NCBI GenBank assembly: GCA_002306085.1
Contig: DBRS01000014.1
Span: forward strand, 10,690 to 74,689
DNA from: Candidatus Moranbacteria bacterium UBA1362
Lineage (GTDB): Bacteria; Patescibacteriota; Minisyncoccia; Moranbacterales; GWC2-37-73
Reading direction: 5' to 3'
Length of the DNA stretch: 64,000 nucleotides
Positions 6,288 to 61,744 of the stretch are shown here, in pieces. Positions within the stretch are counted from its first letter, which is position 1; each line of letters starts with the position of its first letter. The notes beneath the pieces are model-generated. The model saw nothing but the letters and a program-made list of their open reading frames with translations. It was not told the DNA's origin and searched no databases. The position numbers and the translations under genes are program-made.

Positions 6288-6323
6288 CCAGCTAAAAATT
6301 CAAAATTTTGAATTTTTAGCTGG
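6288..6323. repeat. Perfect 36-bp palindrome between smpB and tmRNA
   Basis: ccagctaaaaattcaaaa|ttttgaatttttagctgg is exactly self-complementary. Its last two bases overlap the GGGG start of tmRNA. It probably acts as the smpB terminator or as a processing or promoter element. Confidence 0.7.
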
Positions 6324-6728
6324 GGTTGTTTAGTTTCGACAGGTTGTACTTTTCAAAATATGCAAGCCGACCATTGCCGTAATGTCGCCAAACTTTCGGC
6401 AAAGATATAAGTGCAAACTTCATATCAAAAGCAAAAGCGGTTTTCGCAAGAGGATTTGCTTTTGCTCCAGCTTTAGCTTAATTTAACAGCTTTAGCCATC
6501 GGACTGCCGATTTCTCATAAGCAATCTCCGGTGTCAATCATGAGGATAGTTTGATGCGGTTTTCCGGCTGCATCAAGTGAAATTCTTCCGGAAACTGCGC
6601 ATGTCGGGTTTTGTTTATTTCATACCGCATGCGCCGATCTCCGATTTTTTCGGAGGGAAATAAAACAAGCTTGTAGAATATTTTGGATTGTCAATTTTGG
6701 ACATGGGTGCGATTCCCATCAACTCCAC
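6322..6728 (+). ncRNA. ssrA: Transfer-messenger RNA (tmRNA, ssrA)
   Basis: The 5' end GGGGTTGTTTAGTTTCGACAGG matches the tmRNA 5' consensus (GGGGnuG...UUCGAC.GG). The 3' end GGACATGGGTGCGATTCCCATCAACTCCAC matches the tRNA-like T-arm and acceptor. The acceptor stem GGGGUUG/CAACUCC contains the G3:U70 alanine identity pair. An internal tag reading frame (...GCA AAA GCG GTT TTC GCA AGA GGA TTT GCT TTT GCT CCA GCT TTA GCT TAA) ends with ...PALA-stop about 110 nt from the 5' end. CCA is not encoded. It sits directly downstream of smpB. Confidence 0.85.
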
Positions 6729-54540: not shown

Positions 54541-54612
54541 TCCGGCGTAGCGCAACGGTAGCGCAGGGGACTGTTAATCCCTTGGTTGTAGGTTCGAATC
54601 CTACCGCCGGAG
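54541..54612 (+). tRNA. tRNA-Asn (anticodon GTT)
   Basis: Manual fold. The acceptor is tccggcg/cgccgga, the D-arm gcgc-aacggta-gcgc, the anticodon arm gggga-cTGTTaa-tccct and the T-arm gtagg-ttcgaat-cctac. The discriminator is G and CCA is not encoded. Confidence 0.85.
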
Positions 54613-54750
54613 CACTGAAGTGTACTGTGCGTTCTCGAGTATGTAGTTAAAGGGAGAACGTAGCTCAAATAAAAGCTTTTTATCTTGAAGACGGCAGTTC
54701 TGAAGTAGAAAACTTAAGAGTTGCCGTTTTTCGTTTGCTTCAGAGGCGGA

Positions 54751-55489
54751 AAAGGGGTCAGGTACCTTTTTTCGGCCTTCCTCTTGGAATTAATGTAGAA
54801 ATCAGATTTAGTTTCTCGGCTATGTTTTTTATCCAATTTTCATTCCCATAAGGACGACCTCTTTTAATGGAATAATGTATTTTTTCCAATTTGTCTTCTT
54901 CGTTTTTATCAAGAGTATTAACCCATTCAAGATAACCGTCGGGCATTTCAACCGGCCATTTTGCAAGAAGCTTCTTTTGTTCCTCGTTTCCGTTTTCCCT
55001 GATCCAAAGACTGGACCATTTCCAATCTTGAGCCTTTTCAGTCAATCCGGCCCTCAAAGAATTTCTTTCCACATAACGGCAAACTTGCAAAAAATGATTA
55101 TCTTTTTCAACAAGAAAGGATTTGAATCTTCCCTGATAAACATGCCCGCAACCAATAGTTTTGTAATGGGCATGGTAACGTTGAGTGTGGGTATGAGTTA
55201 TCCATCTCATGAAATTTGACAAATCTTCTCCGTTTTTTGGATATAGCACAAAATGCCAATGGTTTGGCATTATGCAATATGAAAGAATTCGCATCGGATA
55301 CTTTTCCTTCGCTTCAAAAAGTATTTTTTCAAACGCTTCGTAATCTTTTTGTTTTTGAAATATTTTTTCTCTGCCATTGGCACGATTCAAGACATGGTAA
55401 ACCATATCGCCAACAGCTGAGCGTGGTATTCTTGCCATGCTCCAATCATATCACAATATTTATTGATAAAAAAGGTACCTGACCCCTTT
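54751..55489. mobile_element. IS200/IS605-family or RAYT-like element bounded by perfect 22-bp inverted repeats
   Basis: The left IR aaaggggtcaggtacctttttt (54751-54772) and right IR aaaaaaggtacctgaccccttt (55468-55489) are exact reverse complements. Each contains the GGTACC palindrome. They flank a single HuH Y1 transposase gene 140 bp from tRNA-Asn. Confidence 0.65.
54758..55438 (-). CDS. IS200-like / REP-associated tyrosine (Y1, HuH) transposase
   Basis: 226 aa. YHVLNRANGREKIF...ILSYCIMPNHWHFVLYP (the HuH motif is HWH) ...YQGRFKSF (catalytic Tyr region). The stop codon lies inside the left IR. Confidence 0.8.
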   Translation of the reverse strand: MARIPRSAVGDMVYHVLNRANGREKIFQKQKDYEAFEKILFEAKEKYPMRILSYCIMPNHWHFVLYPKNGEDLSNFMRWITHTHTQRYHAHYKTIGCGHVYQGRFKSFLVEKDNHFLQVCRYVERNSLRAGLTEKAQDWKWSSLWIRENGNEEQKKLLAKWPVEMPDGYLEWVNTLDKNEEDKLEKIHYSIKRGRPYGNENWIKNIAEKLNLISTLIPRGRPKKGT

Positions 55490-55553
55490 TTCTTTCTCAA
55501 TGTTGAATTGCTTCAAGGCGATGTTCTGCGGATCGGCTCCCGGTATTGTACAA

Positions 55554-56522
55554 CTAGCCAAAAATAACATTAAACAGATATCCCATGACGATTATCCCGA
55601 TAGTGGTTATTCCGAAAAAAATTGCCAGAAGCTGCCATCGCATCACCTTTTTGAGGATCAGTGCTTCAGGCAGTGACAGAGTAACGATTGCAGTCATGAA
55701 AGCTAAGACTGTGCCAAGCGGTGCGCCTTTGCCAACCATTGCATCCATTATTGGAAGAACGCTGACCGAATTGGCATAGAGCGGAACTCCTGACAAAACA
55801 GCCATTGGAACAGTCCACCAAGATTTTGCTGATAAATAATGTTCAACGAAGTTAGCAGGGATAAGACCGTGAATCAAAGCTCCGATTCCGACACCCAAAA
55901 GGACATAGGGAAAAATTTGTTTGGTAATTTTAAATCCATCTGTCCAAAAATATACCATCTGTTGACGAAAAGAAAGTTTATTGCCTCCATTTTCCAGTTC
56001 AACTTGCTTGCGCGATTTGAATTGCATGAGTTCGGGAAGGACATATTTTTCAACTTTTAATTTTTGAATCAACATTCCGCTAATTATTGCAATCGCCAGT
56101 CCGAATAAGTTATATAAAAAGGTTACTTTAATCCCGAAGAGTGCGGGGAAAAGATAGAGCGATGATTCGTTGATCAAAGGAGAGCTTATCAAAAATGCAA
56201 AGGTGATTCCCAAAGGAATGCCCGCACCCATAAAACCGATAAAAAGCGGGATTGATGAGCAGGAACAGAAAGGGGTAACAATCCCCAAAAGGGCGGCAAA
56301 AAGATAATTTAGCCCATACCAACGCTTTTTGGTCAGAATATCCCGTGCTCTTTCCATTGGAAAATAATAACGAGTAATCGCCATTATATAATTGACAACA
56401 ATCAAAAGCAGCCCGATCTTAACCGTGTCGTAAATAAAAAAGTTTATTCCGTCTGAAATTCCGGTATGCTCGGCTAGTTTGAAAACATCATAGGTCAGCC
56501 AATCGGCGAATGTTTTTATCAT
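55554..56522 (-). CDS. DUF318/ArsP-like permease
   Basis: 322 aa polytopic protein with the hallmark TPFCSCSSIP motif of the ArsP/DUF318 permease family. Confidence 0.7.
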   Translation of the reverse strand: MIKTFADWLTYDVFKLAEHTGISDGINFFIYDTVKIGLLLIVVNYIMAITRYYFPMERARDILTKKRWYGLNYLFAALLGIVTPFCSCSSIPLFIGFMGAGIPLGITFAFLISSPLINESSLYLFPALFGIKVTFLYNLFGLAIAIISGMLIQKLKVEKYVLPELMQFKSRKQVELENGGNKLSFRQQMVYFWTDGFKITKQIFPYVLLGVGIGALIHGLIPANFVEHYLSAKSWWTVPMAVLSGVPLYANSVSVLPIMDAMVGKGAPLGTVLAFMTAIVTLSLPEALILKKVMRWQLLAIFFGITTIGIIVMGYLFNVIFG

Positions 56523-56528
56523 ATATTG

Positions 56529-57245
56529 TTATAAATTGATTAAATATCTAATAAGGTATTGTAGATAGTAAATTCCAGCTAAAAGAAAAATTGTGGCAAC
56601 GCTATATCGCATTATTTTTTCAATGTTTTCCATTATATTGTAGATTTTTCCCAATTTTCCGATACTAAAAGCCAAAATAAAAGAAAAAGCAATAACGGGC
56701 AGCCCAGTTCCTAATGCAAACAAAGGAGGCAAAAGTAAACCGCCAGTTGATTTAATAACAAGTGGAATAAGTATTCCGAAAAATAATACTCCACTATAAG
56801 GGCAAAAGGCTAAAGCGAAAACAATACCCAATAGCAGTGTTCCAATATGTCCTTTTGTTGCCAGCCATTGTTTAATTTTTTCAATCTTCTCGTTTCTTGA
56901 GCCAATGTTTATTTTAATAATCCCAAACATTACTAATGCAATCAAGACAAGTAGTATTCCCAATACTTTATCGCCCCATCCCTGAAAAATTTTTGCCACC
57001 TGAAAGGAGGAAAGCCCGAAAAAAATAAGACCTGCCAAGAGCATATAGCTTATGCCCCTTCCCAAAGTATAAATAAAACCGCTGACTAGAGTATGCTTGG
57101 CGGTTTTTATTTCTCTGGAAATAAAAGCGATGGCAGTAATATTAGTTGCCAAAGGGCATGGACTGATGGAAGTCATCACTCCCAAGACAAAAGCAGATAG
57201 CAAGGGGATATTATATTGGTCTATTAAGATATTAAAAAATTCCAT
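56529..57245 (-). CDS. CcdA/DsbD-like transmembrane thiol-disulfide transporter
   Basis: 238 aa with 6 TM helices. The first helix carries SISPCPLAT, the Cys-Pro motif of the DsbD_2/CcdA family. Confidence 0.65.
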   Translation of the reverse strand: MEFFNILIDQYNIPLLSAFVLGVMTSISPCPLATNITAIAFISREIKTAKHTLVSGFIYTLGRGISYMLLAGLIFFGLSSFQVAKIFQGWGDKVLGILLVLIALVMFGIIKINIGSRNEKIEKIKQWLATKGHIGTLLLGIVFALAFCPYSGVLFFGILIPLVIKSTGGLLLPPLFALGTGLPVIAFSFILAFSIGKLGKIYNIMENIEKIMRYSVATIFLLAGIYYLQYLIRYLINL

Positions 57246-57256
57246 ATTTATTCGAA

Positions 57257-57823
57257 TTATTCAATGCAACAATCAATCGCTTTTCTTACGAGATCTCTTA
57301 GTTTTCCGGTAAAACCTGTTGGATTATTGTCGAGCTTGTTAAGCGCATTTTCGTCAATTTTTTTGATTGTTTTTTCAGATTCAACTCCACCGGCTTCTTT
57401 GATGTCATTTGTCCCGATAAGCTTCATATTTAAAGCCCAGAACATTCCATAAAGGTCATAAGATTTTTGGAACAGTTCCTTGGCTTCTTCTTTCTTGCCC
57501 ATTCCCAATTGTTTTGTTCCAACTTCCATAAGCCGCATCGATGCAGCCAGAAGGTGCTTGGAAATGCACCAAACTTCGCCTTCATATTCTTTAATAATTT
57601 TCTGAAGCAAAGACTTGCGCATTTCCCTTACTTCTTTGAGCAAATCAAAATATTCGTCTTTGCCTGTTTTTTCAGCTGTGAAGAAAAAATGTTCCTCAAT
57701 GCTAATAAGATTCATGATGGCAATACTAAGATCTTGATCGGATGATAGATCCATCTTATCCTGTTTCTTCATCTGATCAATTTTTTTCACGAATTCGCTT
57801 AAATTTTTGATTTTGTTTTGCAT
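57257..57823 (-). CDS. Hypothetical helical protein
   Basis: 188 aa. No motif was found. Confidence 0.3.
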   Translation of the reverse strand: MQNKIKNLSEFVKKIDQMKKQDKMDLSSDQDLSIAIMNLISIEEHFFFTAEKTGKDEYFDLLKEVREMRKSLLQKIIKEYEGEVWCISKHLLAASMRLMEVGTKQLGMGKKEEAKELFQKSYDLYGMFWALNMKLIGTNDIKEAGGVESEKTIKKIDENALNKLDNNPTGFTGKLRDLVRKAIDCCIE

Positions 57824-57827
57824 AATT

Positions 57828-58343
57828 TTATTTAGTTAGAAAATAATAAACGACGCTTAAAATGATTAAAGGTGCAATTGGCATTACCACTTTCTGAAAA
57901 GGAAAGTAGGCGTGTCCGTTATTTTTATCTTTGAGATGAAAATACCAGCTGGCGCCAAACCAAAAAGAAATGCTTCCGGCAATTATGCCGAAAAGCAGTT
58001 TGTCTAGACCGCAGTTACAAAAAGTATTTAAGGGATTGCCAATTATCTTGGAATAATGCAGCGGAATTAAGATTAAGGCATAATATCCTGCAATGTTAGC
58101 GTAAATTCTGCCTTTGAATTTGATATTTTTCTTATCCAGCCAGCTTTCCGTCCAAGCAATCATAGAAACGATCAGCCCTCCGATCCAAAGTCCGGTAATT
58201 GAATCATCTATTCCCAGCCAGCGTGAAAGTCCGACACCGGCGCTGACAGCAATTGTGCAAATTGGACAAACCGCCCATGCTTTTTTGGCAAAAATAACCC
58301 CGACTGTAAAAAACGCTAAAAATAACGCTGATTTTTTATTCAT
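57828..58343 (-). CDS. Membrane protein with CPxC and CxC motifs (possible thiol-disulfide oxidoreductase)
   Basis: 171 aa and ~4 TM helices. AVCPICT lies in TM1 and FCNCG in a later loop. Confidence 0.35.
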   Translation of the reverse strand: MNKKSALFLAFFTVGVIFAKKAWAVCPICTIAVSAGVGLSRWLGIDDSITGLWIGGLIVSMIAWTESWLDKKNIKFKGRIYANIAGYYALILIPLHYSKIIGNPLNTFCNCGLDKLLFGIIAGSISFWFGASWYFHLKDKNNGHAYFPFQKVVMPIAPLIILSVVYYFLTK

Positions 58344-58754
58344 TTATTTTTCGTAAATTTTTTGTTTGAAAAAAGCAATGATATCTTTGTCGCCACTCAG
58401 GCATTTTTCTCCGTCCCAAAGAAAGGGAATACCTATTGAATCTTTCGGTATTCCACAGGCTCTGGCTTTTTCTTCCAATTGTTTGAAATTGGCTCGGTCG
58501 CGATAGATCTCCTTTTGAGAAAATTTTATTTTTTCATCTACTTTATTTTTTTTGATGTAGTCTTCCACGATCAAACAATGCGGGCAGCCGTCCCCATAGA
58601 AAAAAATTATATTCTCTTCCGATTCCACTTTCTCCTGAACCGGCATCTCGCTTGCCGGCAATTGCTCTGAGCTTTTATCTTTGAAAAAAGCATAAAATGA
58701 AAATATCAGAGTGAAAATGAATAAGACTGTAGGTATAATGATTTTATTTTTCAT
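58344..58754 (-). CDS. Membrane-anchored glutaredoxin-like protein (CPHC)
   Basis: 136 aa. FFYGDGCPHCLIVEDYI. It is a paralog of 50643..51032. Confidence 0.65.
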   Translation of the reverse strand: MKNKIIIPTVLFIFTLIFSFYAFFKDKSSEQLPASEMPVQEKVESEENIIFFYGDGCPHCLIVEDYIKKNKVDEKIKFSQKEIYRDRANFKQLEEKARACGIPKDSIGIPFLWDGEKCLSGDKDIIAFFKQKIYEK

Positions 58755-58760
58755 GGTTTT

Positions 58761-59243
58761 TTATAATAAACTTTTTATTTCCGAAACAAGATAATCAGAA
58801 AAAGCCTTTTTGTCGGATATTAGTCTCCAAACCCGGGTGTCTTCTTTGATGTTGTCCTTGCCGTCGATAATCGGATTGATAAAAAGCGATGATCCAGCCG
58901 CCTTAAACTTAGCCGCAATTTCCTTATTTTCCGGCAAATCCACGTTAATTTCTTTGAATTCAATTTTTCCTTCATGCAACTCTAATTGAAAGAATTCCTC
59001 AAGCGTTGCTTTCGTGTATTGACCTATTGTTATGCAGGAATGGCAGCGGTTAGTGGAATGAAACATGTAAACCTGGATTTTTTCCGCCGGTTTTGTTTTT
59101 TGAACTTCAGTCTCCTGAGAATTTTTTTGCGTGTTGATGCTGTCGGACTGAGAATTTTTGTTCGAATTTGCGCTTATATAGATAAGTGCTATGGCAAAAA
59201 ACAAAGCGCTTCCATAAAGCAAATATATCCCTAACTTTTTCAT
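58761..59243 (-). CDS. Secreted/anchored CxxC protein (CHSC), possible thioredoxin-like fold
   Basis: 160 aa with an N-terminal TM. VYMFHSTNRCHSCITIGQY. Confidence 0.35.
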   Translation of the reverse strand: MKKLGIYLLYGSALFFAIALIYISANSNKNSQSDSINTQKNSQETEVQKTKPAEKIQVYMFHSTNRCHSCITIGQYTKATLEEFFQLELHEGKIEFKEINVDLPENKEIAAKFKAAGSSLFINPIIDGKDNIKEDTRVWRLISDKKAFSDYLVSEIKSLL

Positions 59244-59264
59244 AATATGCTCCTATCTTAATTA

Positions 59265-59552
59265 TTAGCACTTGCAATTGCAAGAACAAGCCCCGGCCTG
59301 ATTGTTTGCTGACATTTTGTAATTTGCCAATATTTCTTTGATTTGATCAACATCAGGCACTGATCCGGCTATGACTACTTTCTCATCCACAATCAAAACT
59401 GGCATGCTCATTACGTTATATTCCATTATTTTTTGAATGTCGGTTATTTTTTCTACCGTCGTTTCCATTTTTAATTCTTCCAGAGCTTTTTTTGTGTTGG
59501 ATTCAAGTTTTTGGCAATTAGGACAGTCAGAGCCTAAGATTTTAATGTTCAT
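59265..59552 (-). CDS. Thioredoxin-family small redox-active disulfide protein (CPNC active site) with Cys-rich tail
   Basis: 95 aa. MNIKILGSDCPNCQKLE resembles the 'redox-active disulfide protein 2' family that is commonly paired with ArsR and DUF318 permeases. The C-terminus is CSCNCKC. Confidence 0.65.
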   Translation of the reverse strand: MNIKILGSDCPNCQKLESNTKKALEELKMETTVEKITDIQKIMEYNVMSMPVLIVDEKVVIAGSVPDVDQIKEILANYKMSANNQAGACSCNCKC

Positions 59553-59557
59553 AACGT

Positions 59558-59866
59558 TTATTTGATTACTTGATTAAAAATTTTCTTATAATCCTTGATA
59601 GCTTTTTTATTAAGGGAATAGCGGATAAAATTTCCTTCCCTTGTTTCATTCAAAAGCCCTATTTTTTTCAGTTGCTTTAGATGGTGGGAAGCCAATTTGT
59701 CTGAGATGCCGATGGCGGGAATTATTTCGCATACGCATTTTGAGCCTCTCTGAAGAACGCAGAGAATTTTCAGTCTGTTTGGATCGGCGATGGCGCGAAG
59801 AAATGAATATGTTTTGGCAACATCATCCGCCTCTTTTGAATTTTTTCCGCAACAATTGAATGACAT
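59558..59866 (-). CDS. ArsR/SmtB family metalloregulatory transcriptional repressor
   Basis: 102 aa. The wHTH region has the metal-sensing CVCE motif (LKILCVLQRGSKCVCEIIPAIGISDKLASHHLKQLKKIGLL). Confidence 0.85.
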   Translation of the reverse strand: MSFNCCGKNSKEADDVAKTYSFLRAIADPNRLKILCVLQRGSKCVCEIIPAIGISDKLASHHLKQLKKIGLLNETREGNFIRYSLNKKAIKDYKKIFNQVIK

Positions 59867-60033
59867 AAAAAAACTATTCTAGTTTATATTAGAATAGTAT
59901 AATCTTTTTTTAATTTTGTCAAAAGTTCCGGGCCTGTTGTAACAAAAACAAGGCCTTAACGATCTTGTTTATAAAATACTTCCTATGATAGATATGTTTC
60001 GCAACTTTAATATTAGTCATAGCAAGGAATTGA

Positions 60034-60378
60034 TTAAAATGGTTTAGTGATATTTACGTCATCCACTCTGACTTTGTGAGAAATAATCAAAGACTTCAAA
60101 TGTTCCCTGAATTCTTGCATTGGCACAAGCCCGCTTCGTGCGTTTGTCAAAGCTTGAAATCCATCCGCTTTAGTTAAATTCAATCCGAGAGCCACCACTC
60201 CCATATTGAAACCAAGCTGGATCTTCCGCTCTTCGGATAAATCATCCCACTTGTCTACTTGTGTAAATCGTAGCACTTGTTCACAGGCGTGAATAACAAA
60301 ATCATTCATATTATTTCTTATATCTATAATTATATCATAAAAAGCTTTGGAGTTATATTGGTATAAAAAATAACCCAA
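60034..60378 (-). CDS. Hypothetical protein
   Basis: 114 aa with no motif. It lies immediately 3' of the intron-containing tRNA gene. Confidence 0.3.
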   Translation of the reverse strand: MGYFLYQYNSKAFYDIIIDIRNNMNDFVIHACEQVLRFTQVDKWDDLSEERKIQLGFNMGVVALGLNLTKADGFQALTNARSGLVPMQEFREHLKSLIISHKVRVDDVNITKPF

Positions 60379-60440
60379 TAAAAATGGGTTATTTTATCTA
60401 GCTCCGCGAGTAGGACTCGAACCTACAACCAATTGATTAC

Positions 60441-60986
60441 ACATTATCTCTTTGTTTCCAAAAAGGGTGGACTATATCATCTCCTTTACAGGAGTGAGGC
60501 GCTTCCCGGAATTTAAAATTCCAGTACTCTCTTGCAAGATAGTCTCTGAACCTTTCCCGGATGATGGGACTTGGCTGCTGATTACCATAATTTCTGCTGA
60601 GAAATGTTAGGCTTCCAGCAATTCACCTCATTCTTCACTTCCAAATTTCTTTGGAAGGCTGCGAATGTTATTATGCAACTCTCTGTGGCAATTTGCGCAT
60701 ACAAGAATGCATTTTTCAACTTCACCTTTCACTCTCTCCCAGCTGCGGGTCAAACCCGATTGGGAAACGCCAAATTCTTTTTTGAAGAATCGGCATGATG
60801 AAATTCCAATGCATCACTGCAACGATCATAGCCACAAAGCGCACACCTACCGCCTCCATATTGAATTGCCATTTCTCTAAGTTTCTTGCGTCTTTTTGAA
60901 ACAGCCTTGATCATATACTCTCGGCGGTCAGCATATTTTCGGGTATCCTTCATATATTTTAATTATAACATGAAGGAACGTGTACC
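60441..60986 (-). ncRNA. Group I self-splicing intron (inserted in tRNA anticodon loop)
   Basis: The minus strand contains the canonical group I core elements R (GTTCAGAGACTA, plus-strand coords 60541-60552) and S (GATATAGTCC, 60470-60479). The intron ends in G before the 3' exon. The 5' exon ends in U, consistent with a P1 U.G pair. Confidence 0.7.
60583..60953 (-). pseudogene. Decayed HNH homing-endonuclease gene inside the intron
   Basis: The 67-aa ORF 60750..60953 encodes ...GGGRCALCGYDRCSDALEFHHADSSKKN (a CxxC knuckle plus the HH of HNH). The same frame, interrupted by two TGA stops, continues as ...KNAFLYAQIATES..., where the second knuckle (N..LC..CH) has mutated to Y/I/A. Confidence 0.5.
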
Positions 60987-61744
60987 ACAGTCAACTGCTC
61001 TACCATTGAGCTATCGCGGAATATTTAATTTTAAAAATGTTGCCCAATAAAGCAACAAAAGCATTATAACAAAAGATTGCCTGCTTGGCAAGGCTTAAAA
61101 ATGGGCCGGATCTTGAATAACGCATCTGTCTTATCACTTGTTTTTGCGGCGTTTTTCGCGGTTGTCGCCATCGGCATGATTTTGATCGGCTTTGCTTTCA
61201 ATATGTTTTTCTGACAAAAGTAACGGCTTTTCCCGATATTTCGATTTTTTCACGAGAAGCATGTTATTCATCAATTAACATATTCTGTTTTTGTGATAGA
61301 ATATGAACATAACATTAATACAAAAAAATGAACCACAAAAGGCTTGAAGTTTTTCTGGAGTTCCTGTGTTTTGGAGTGATCATGGGCGTTATTGAAGACA
61401 TGATCGCAGTCAGAATCACATCAGGAACACCTATAACATGGAAGGTTTTCGGAGTCATCGTTTTAATAGCGATTCCTTTTGCCTTCATCGGAGAAATGAT
61501 CGTCGACAAGATCAACTTTGTGAAGCTTTTCAGAAGATTCTTTTCAAAAAAACGAAGGGCATAGAAAAAACAGCAAAACAAAATCGAAGCGCCGCAAGGC
61601 GTTTTTTTGTTTGCCGACATCCCTTCCCTGTTCATGCGGAGGATCCAATGATGAGCAATGTTCATCCCGATCACTGGCGACAGAAGACGAAAAAATTCTG
61701 TTTGTACTAAATGTAGGCATGATAATTAATTAATCTTCAAAAAA

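Follow-up and report, generated by a model that had tools for sequence, protein, structure and literature searches.

In the window analysed here, a stretch of 64,000 nucleotides of contig DBRS01000014.1 from Candidatus Moranbacteria bacterium UBA1362, the reverse strand carries at 54743-55498 a self-contained unit of 756 bp, composed of a single transposase gene and two terminal inverted repeats (TIRs) of about 30 bp each. We consider it likely, with a probability of roughly 80%, that this unit is a TIRtron, i.e. a member of the class described by Di Nocera 2013 (BMC Genomics 14:522, PMC3733652), in which genes resembling those of REP-associated tyrosine transposases (RAYTs; REP, repetitive extragenic palindrome) lie between inverted repeats unrelated to the GTAG REPs. 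The same paper calls the corresponding proteins TIRYTs (TIR-associated tyrosine transposases), and the explanation includes an enzyme family that co-evolves with its terminal inverted repeats. It is carried by the fold and the catalytic motifs of the protein, by the conservation and co-variation of the repeats among homologous loci, by copies of the repeat that stand without the gene, and by the homology between related loci, which ends at the repeats. The original prediction took the arrangement to be unusual for this class of protein and proposed a REP/RAYT-like system, which was right in spirit and wrong in category. The RAYT-like protein, the conserved inverted repeats and the gene-less copies of a 21-mer in many genomes bear it out; the repeats, however, are not canonical REPs (they lack the GT[AG]G foot, form a weak hairpin and have no other copy in the window), and the arrangement already has a name (TIRtron/TIRYT, PMC3733652) and a place in a published classification (subclass 2.1, PMC6006769).

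The unit and its transposase

The gene at 54758-55438 on the reverse strand, recognized as an open reading frame with Pfam and NCBIfam matches and by alignment with the Protein Data Bank (PDB) entry 4ER8, encodes a RAYT-like Y1 transposase of the HUH (histidine-hydrophobic residue-histidine) type; it is 226 aa long and contains both motifs that had been read in it, HWHFV (aa 60-64) and YQGRF (aa 101-105). It matches the Pfam family Y1_Tnp with 66.5 bits and the NCBIfam RAYT model REP_Tyr_transpos (NF047646) with 73.1 bits, as opposed to 22 bits with transpos_IS200 (NF033573, cutoff 55), so that by the latter model it fails as an IS200-type TnpA. Its sole match among the PDB sequences is TnpAREP of E. 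coli (4ER8, E = 1.5e-4), and in this alignment H60-W61-H62 falls on the HUH motif and Y122, in the context CRYVERN, on the catalytic tyrosine; YQGRF is thus a conserved motif distinct from the catalytic tyrosine. An AlphaFold2 model calculated from 46 homologs (pLDDT 91, pTM 0.88) has 4ER8 as its best fold match (E = 1e-8, target TM 0.70), followed by the TnpA proteins of ISDra2 and IS608. Residues N59, H60, W61, H62, Y101, Q102, Y122, N126, W139 and S143 are invariant in the 46 homologs. The search yielded more than 7,800 relatives; among those with a name, the closest come from metagenome-assembled genomes (MAGs) of Parcubacteria, Moranbacteria and the "Patescibacteria group", and some of the Patescibacteria homologs already carry the NCBI name 'REP-associated tyrosine transposase'. 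The profile matches support grouping the protein with the RAYT-like transposases and not with ordinary IS200 TnpA.

The last 90 residues are also conserved and contain the WKWSS motif (139-143, with W139 and W141 conserved) and two RGRP motifs similar to AT-hook cores, at about aa 193-196 and 219-222 (DNA at about 54851-54862 and 54773-54784). In the AlphaFold2 model this tail forms short helices that have no match in the PDB. The length of the protein, which had been noted as greater than that of typical RAYTs (~150 aa), is typical of subclass 2.1, whose median is 238 aa.

The 22-mer AAAGGGGTCAGGTACCTTTTTT at 54751-54772 (forward strand) has its exact reverse complement at 55468-55489, as predicted, and there is no further match to it in the window at up to three mismatches; none of 100 dinucleotide-preserving shuffles yielded such a pair. 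The predicted length of 22 bp proved too short, since the exact repeat extends over 23 bp (54750-54772 against 55468-55490) and is prolonged imperfectly, by an outer tract rich in purines, as far as 54743 and 55498, i.e. to a total of about 30 bp. The repeat at the 3' end of the gene (54743-54772) consists of the core AAAAGGGGTCAGGTACCTTTTTT (forward strand, 54750-54772) and the outer tract GAGGCGG, and the repeat upstream of the gene (55468-55498) of the core AAAAAAGGTACCTGACCCCTTTT (forward strand, 55468-55490) and the outer tract TCTTTCTC. The core of the latter lies 30-52 bp 5' of the ATG, while the former, as had been noticed, overlaps the end of the gene and encodes its last codons, KKGT and stop (gene tail ...RGRPKKGT*); in two homologs (P0052 and P0077) the reading frame continues through the repeat (KKRYLTPF... 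and RKGTRPLF...). Both repeats include GGGGTCAG, at 54754-54761 and as its complement at 55479-55486, which fits the motif GGGGWSAS. The boundaries of the unit were drawn from comparison of DNA: near-identity with a related locus, L009, begins on the upstream side at 55498, the breakpoints in two strains (L002 and L009) lie directly after CCGCCTC on the gene strand, and among 14 homolog loci the similarity extends mostly from about 50-70 bp before the ATG to about 8 bp past the stop codon.

The palindrome GGTACC within the repeat, proposed earlier to form a small hairpin, leaves no loop and therefore cannot do so alone; in the predicted single-strand fold it is AAAA(A)GG and CC(T)TTTT that pair, as an outer stem of A/T and G/C pairs enclosing a loop of 9 nt. 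Between the upstream repeat and the gene we found a candidate extended -10 promoter element, TGATATGAT (55445-55453, reverse strand), which ends 6 nt before the ATG and is situated 14 bp inward of the upstream repeat core, so that the -35 region would fall at the inner T-run of that repeat. The assignment is based on reading of the sequence and on the presence of a TGnTATAAT-like box (TATAAT, TATACT or TATGAT) with the same 6-nt spacing in seven homolog loci; a generic promoter scan did not report it. The spacing suggests a leaderless mRNA, in which case the GGAG that directly precedes the window's ATG would be untranscribed or located at the extreme 5' end.

Repeats across the family and without the gene

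In loci whose homologs are 69-80% identical to the window protein and whose gene neighbourhoods differ (L011-L016), the same repeat is found about 50 bp before the ATG and over the stop codon, and in L011 both arms carry a compensating change (AAGTAC and GTACTT). A protein-guided scan of metagenome contigs added 80 loci with homologs of 49-75% identity, 69 of them with both flanks present. The score of the flanking inverted repeat reaches at least 14 in 57 and at least 18 in 48 of these 69, as compared to a maximum of 11 in shuffled sequences. The repeat occurs in variants, including GGGGTCAGGTACC, GGTGTCAGGAACC, GGGGTCAGCCACC, GGGGTCGGGAGTC and GGGGACAGGTCC, each of which is matched in the partner arm, and in many homologs the downstream repeat matches the upstream arm even though it is situated past the stop codon. 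GGGGWSAS is fitted strictly by 20 of the 69 loci and in a relaxed form by 51. Over 83 distinct repeats, a 7-bp stem within the single repeat is 78% paired, and its covariation score of 0.174 exceeds that of shuffled alignments (0.109; reached by none of 500) and of alignments with the partners slid (at most 0.105). The inverted repeats are a conserved, co-varying feature of the family, near-universal in the 69-locus sample.

Two of the homolog loci exhibit additional arrangements. One (L051, 4823-5059) contains a pseudogene with in-frame stops that retains the upstream repeat and the promoter-like box. In the other, from a MAG labelled Saccharibacteria (L059, 620-733 and 1423), a 224-aa homolog is followed by four tandem copies of the repeat, each accompanied by a fragment of the 3' end of the gene, and on the upstream side a partial copy of the outer repeat half stands next to the full repeat; comparable partial outer-half copies were seen in eight other loci.

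An exact scan for the 21-mer AAAAGGGGTCARGTACCTTTT, with one genome per species, returned at least 119 stretches from at least 83 assemblies, and among the matches listed a homolog of the gene stands beside the repeat in only about a dozen. The 21-mer occurs in Patescibacteria, in Planctomycetota and in MAGs labelled as other phyla, letter for letter the same in genomes of 32-71% G+C with several phylum labels. Among the matches listed, Patescibacteria-labelled MAGs have 45 single sites, one inverted doublet, five direct pairs or arrays and six gene-flanking pairs, and Planctomycetota-labelled MAGs have 21 single sites, 27 inverted doublets, eight direct pairs or arrays and no gene-flanking pair. 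A gene-bearing unit and unlinked single copies are present together in at least four MAGs (PCRW01, JAYRSG01, JBAZSS01 and CAYNJS01). Outside the repeat, the adjoining 10 nt are purine-rich (67%), and of 152 full copies 15 have a partial outer-half copy on their outer side, as against only four with one on the inner side. The exact 21-mer is also present in cultured Gram-positive isolates, namely Clostridium sp. Marseille-P3244 (two loci) and Gordonibacter sp. 28C (one locus), and a MAG with an archaeal label (Aenigmatarchaeota) has a copy with 1-2 mismatches to the G-variant.

For the Planctomycetota inverted doublet, folding predicts a single long hairpin (-30 kcal/mol, z = -9.3). These doublets often enclose a 29-bp spacer (GTGCGAAGCACCCTTCGGGCCGTTCCGGC or its complement), which is conserved between different MAGs and was seen in eleven loci; one reading frame, ...STLRAVPAKGT*, is similar to the C-terminus of the transposase. 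The doublets may be internally deleted units.

Strain comparisons and neighbouring features

The repeat-to-repeat stretch (757 bp) is 99.87% identical between loci L001 and L009, while the flanking genes of L009 share 73-79% identity (94.6% in one piece) with those of the window lineage, and the identity falls abruptly where the upstream repeat ends on its outer side. This hints at a recent exchange of the unit between lineages. Such a pattern, including the sharp drop at the left outer repeat end, would be expected of an active autonomous insertion sequence (IS) that moves and is transferred in one piece, bounded by the inverted repeats; the same reading is favoured by the similarity between most elements, which stops at the repeats, and by the position of RAYT group 1, with which PMC6006769 equates subclass 2.1, among the most IS-like RAYT groups (Bertels 2017, PMC5581495). 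We nevertheless regard it as unlikely. The identity of 99.9% between L001 and L009 could be taken as proof of transposition, a reading that we rejected: L002, which represents the species of the window (99.9%), has 3.46 kb in common with L009 at 99-100%, reaching beyond the unit, and the right-hand switch falls in a terminator that all three lineages have. Homologous recombination for which the identical unit provided one of the anchors explains the L002/L009 case and appears at least as likely as transposition. Moreover, the window contains one copy only, repeat-only copies outnumber gene copies among the matches listed, and in three Moranbacteria-like genomes (L023, L070 and L121) the unit occupies one orthologous locus and is 90-91% identical between flanks of 80-90% identity, which is the pattern of vertical descent. 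A search of metagenome contigs for empty sites, in which the two flanks are joined with a gap of 0-30 nt, gave no match and hence no direct evidence of insertion or excision.

Three differences between strains begin precisely where one of the repeats ends on its outer side. In the window lineage, the upstream repeat is adjoined by a block of 4.9 kb (ArsR/thioredoxin/DsbD/ArsP) that is absent in L009. L002 diverges from the window immediately beyond the downstream repeat and there has 2.5 kb in place of a 627-bp segment with a gene for tRNA-Asn, and at the downstream-repeat junction L009 has a partial copy, 21 bp long, of the outer repeat half. From these three differences one could read the unit ends as live DNA junctions at which neighbouring cassettes are swapped between Parcubacteria lineages, possibly by one-ended mobilisation as in the IS91/ISCR elements; we hold this to be improbable. 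The block itself (55499-60394) encodes an ArsR-like HTH_5 protein, thioredoxin_3, four unknown open reading frames, DsbD_2 and ArsP_1, and is positioned between the unit and an intron-bearing tRNA gene; in L009 the unit follows about 50 bp after the terminator of that tRNA.

The tRNA-Asn(GTT) gene at 54541-54613 (forward strand) lies 137 bp from the nearer repeat, so the tRNA neighbour reported earlier is real. It is not a feature of the family: among 13 gene-bearing loci checked, a tRNA gene within 200 bp of the unit was found in the window's own lineage alone, and adjacency to a tRNA was therefore rejected as a target-site feature. Two sister strains diverge after the last 7 nt of tRNA-Asn (L003 from 10832, L005 from 6019) into different islands, which marks the tRNA as an integration hotspot for defence and restriction-modification islands, independent of the unit, and the adjacency looks incidental. 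The island of L003 comprises genes for N6_N4 methylase, ResIII helicase and AAA_15, that of L005 a type I restriction-modification system and Abi_C, and L002 lacks the tRNA-Asn segment.

Elsewhere in the window, another tRNA gene (60393-61020, reverse strand) is apparently split by a group I intron, for which Rfam gives a match to Intron_gpI at 60448-60687 (85 bits, cutoff 50, E = 3.5e-21). By reading of the sequence, an intron of about 550 nt separates a 5' exon at about 61020-60988 from a 3' exon at about 60433-60393; after splicing, the anticodon loop would be CTTGTAA, i.e. that of tRNA-Thr(UGU), and ARAGORN misses the gene. The intron carries an HNH-type endonuclease frame (...CANCHRELHNN), frameshifted at an A-run. 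The sequence GGTTGTAGGTTCGAGTCCTACTCGCGGAGC, which could suggest a tRNA remnant from the action of an integrase, was identified with the help of Rfam as the 3' exon of this split tRNA. The window also contains a tmRNA gene (6322-6728) with the tag peptide ANFISKAKAVFARGFAFAPALA.

Relation to known systems and proposed mechanism

The unit agrees with the TIRtrons of PMC3733652 in having a RAYT-like Y1 gene, with HUH motif and catalytic tyrosine, between long inverted repeats that are not of the GTAG type. In that survey many of the repeats, though not all, contain GGGGWSAS, and overlap with the gene at its 3' end is described for some of them; here, likewise, GGGGTCAG fits this motif and the repeats stand at set distances, one of them over the gene 3' end. 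The host differs, in that Patescibacteria/Parcubacteria, to which it probably belongs, are absent from the survey, and so does the repeat content of the window, which has no extra copy, in contrast to some of the surveyed genomes, in which copies occur as singles, dimers or groups. In PMC3733652 we saw no report of an exact 21-mer common to genomes of widely different G+C across phyla.

According to Quentin 2018 (PMC6006769), most TIRYTs belong to subclass 2.1 of TnpAY1, which has a tail with an SS motif. The window protein resembles this subclass in length, in the N-H-u-H motif, the aromatic-Q motif and the SS of the tail (WKWSS, with S143 invariant), and its low copy number and patchy distribution fit as well; in group 1 of PMC5581495, 6.3% of members have near-identical duplicates, 1.2% are on plasmids and the flanking 16-mers are moderately repeated. 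It departs from the subclass in the middle residue of the HUH motif, which is W (NHWH) against the published NH[V/Y/F]H, in YVERNS (YVERNP in the family) against YIELNP or Y[IV]HLNP, and in a tail that matches none of Bac_DnaA_C, HTH_23 and HTH_28. The HUH and tyrosine motifs come near the published forms without being the same. A search by the authors of PMC6006769 found no repeats around 2.1 genes, whereas they are near-universal in our sample.

The remaining comparison is with the REPtron of E. coli, whose TnpAREP (RayT/YafM, 4ER8) is the top match in both sequence and fold, with the HUH motif and the tyrosine aligned, and whose gene lies between inverted palindromic repeats. If the window held a canonical system of this kind, a domesticated single-copy RAYT would spread GTAG-type REP hairpins or REPINs in its own genome. 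The top sequence, profile and fold matches are indeed to RAYTs, inverted repeats do flank the gene, and the Planctomycetota doublets of the 21-mer, with their one long predicted hairpin, are REPIN-like. We consider such a system improbable all the same. TnpAREP has 165 aa and no long tail; the REPs of E. coli number in the hundreds, each a strong bulged hairpin with a GTAG foot, whereas the window repeats have no GT[AG]G foot and no extra copy in 64 kb, and the protein scores under the NCBIfam equivalog cutoff. REPs are also reported to be specific to each RAYT (PMC6006769), in contrast to the same repeat found here across phyla, and the published classification sets such elements apart as TIRYT, subclass 2.1. 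The TnpA proteins of the IS200/IS605 family (IS608, ISDra2) have the same Y1 HUH fold, and their single-strand cut-and-rejoin chemistry serves as a model of mechanism, but they are of about 130-150 aa with a Y---Q signature in place of YVERN, and their elements have subterminal hairpins on one strand instead of terminal inverted repeats and are multi-copy, near-identical and often accompanied by tnpB, as opposed to the single copy here.

It is very improbable that the repeats are only control signals of a domesticated gene (a promoter operator and a 3' signal constrained by the C-terminal codons, with no DNA cut or moved), as the upstream repeat adjoining the conserved promoter-like box and the downstream repeat encoding the conserved ...RGRPKKGT* tail might suggest, since this leaves unexplained the many gene-less copies, inverted doublets and partial outer-half copies, and since the downstream repeat matches the upstream arm in many homologs even after the stop and the catalytic residues are invariant.

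Returning to the TIRtron explanation, several observations weigh against it. A third copy of the 21-mer core is absent from the window even at up to six mismatches; the score of 73.1 bits is below the equivalog cutoff of 80 of the RAYT model; YVERNS deviates from the class 2 signature Y---NP, to which the homolog consensus YVERNP conforms; and the C-terminal third (aa 135-226) has no Pfam domain at E up to 10 apart from a sub-threshold AT_hook. The single repeat of the window folds weakly (-3.8 to -6.7 kcal/mol, z-scores of -1.7 to -4.1), and part of the self-complementarity of the repeats is merely A-runs opposite T-runs. The ends of the unit are inverted, so that an enzyme specific for one strand would encounter each end on a different strand, in contrast to the ends of IS200/IS605. 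Finally, we found no biochemical test of any TIRYT in the literature, which makes every cleavage step proposed below an analogy.

By analogy with TnpAREP and with the TnpA of IS608 and ISDra2, the enzyme would recognise the repeat in one of two forms, a small hairpin in single-stranded DNA or a nearly palindromic duplex, and would cleave at its purine-rich outer edge by means of Y122 and a metal held by H60 and H62. Rejoining might occasionally copy repeat-bounded DNA elsewhere, and the single copies and doublets would be products of such events. With the candidate promoter located next to the upstream repeat, enzyme bound there could also act as a repressor of its own gene. In the genome of the window the system looks nearly quiet: the transposase gene is single-copy within the window, and besides its two repeats there is no other copy in the 64 kb, nor any additional one in the loci of the same strain.

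The apparent oddity of a HUH transposase with terminal inverted repeats is thus settled by its membership in a little-known, already named class. The prediction that such elements are little documented in this lineage agrees with our literature search, which retrieved nothing that links these transposases with bacteria of the Candidate Phyla Radiation, no further work on TIRYTs beyond the papers cited, and, for the repeat sequence itself, unrelated primers only. The finding extends the class to Patescibacteria, with their small, densely packed genomes, and adds to it the near-universal, co-varying pairing of repeat and gene in 69 loci and a 21-nt repeat that is identical across phylum labels; the family-wide statistics, this cross-phylum identity and the breakpoints at the repeat ends are the most useful by-products of the analysis. 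The cultured carriers of the repeat, Clostridium sp. Marseille-P3244 and Gordonibacter sp. 28C, offer a practical route to the study of the mechanism. If it is the enzyme that makes the joints seen at the repeat ends, TIRtrons would be, beyond spreading their repeats, devices for the exchange of cassettes.

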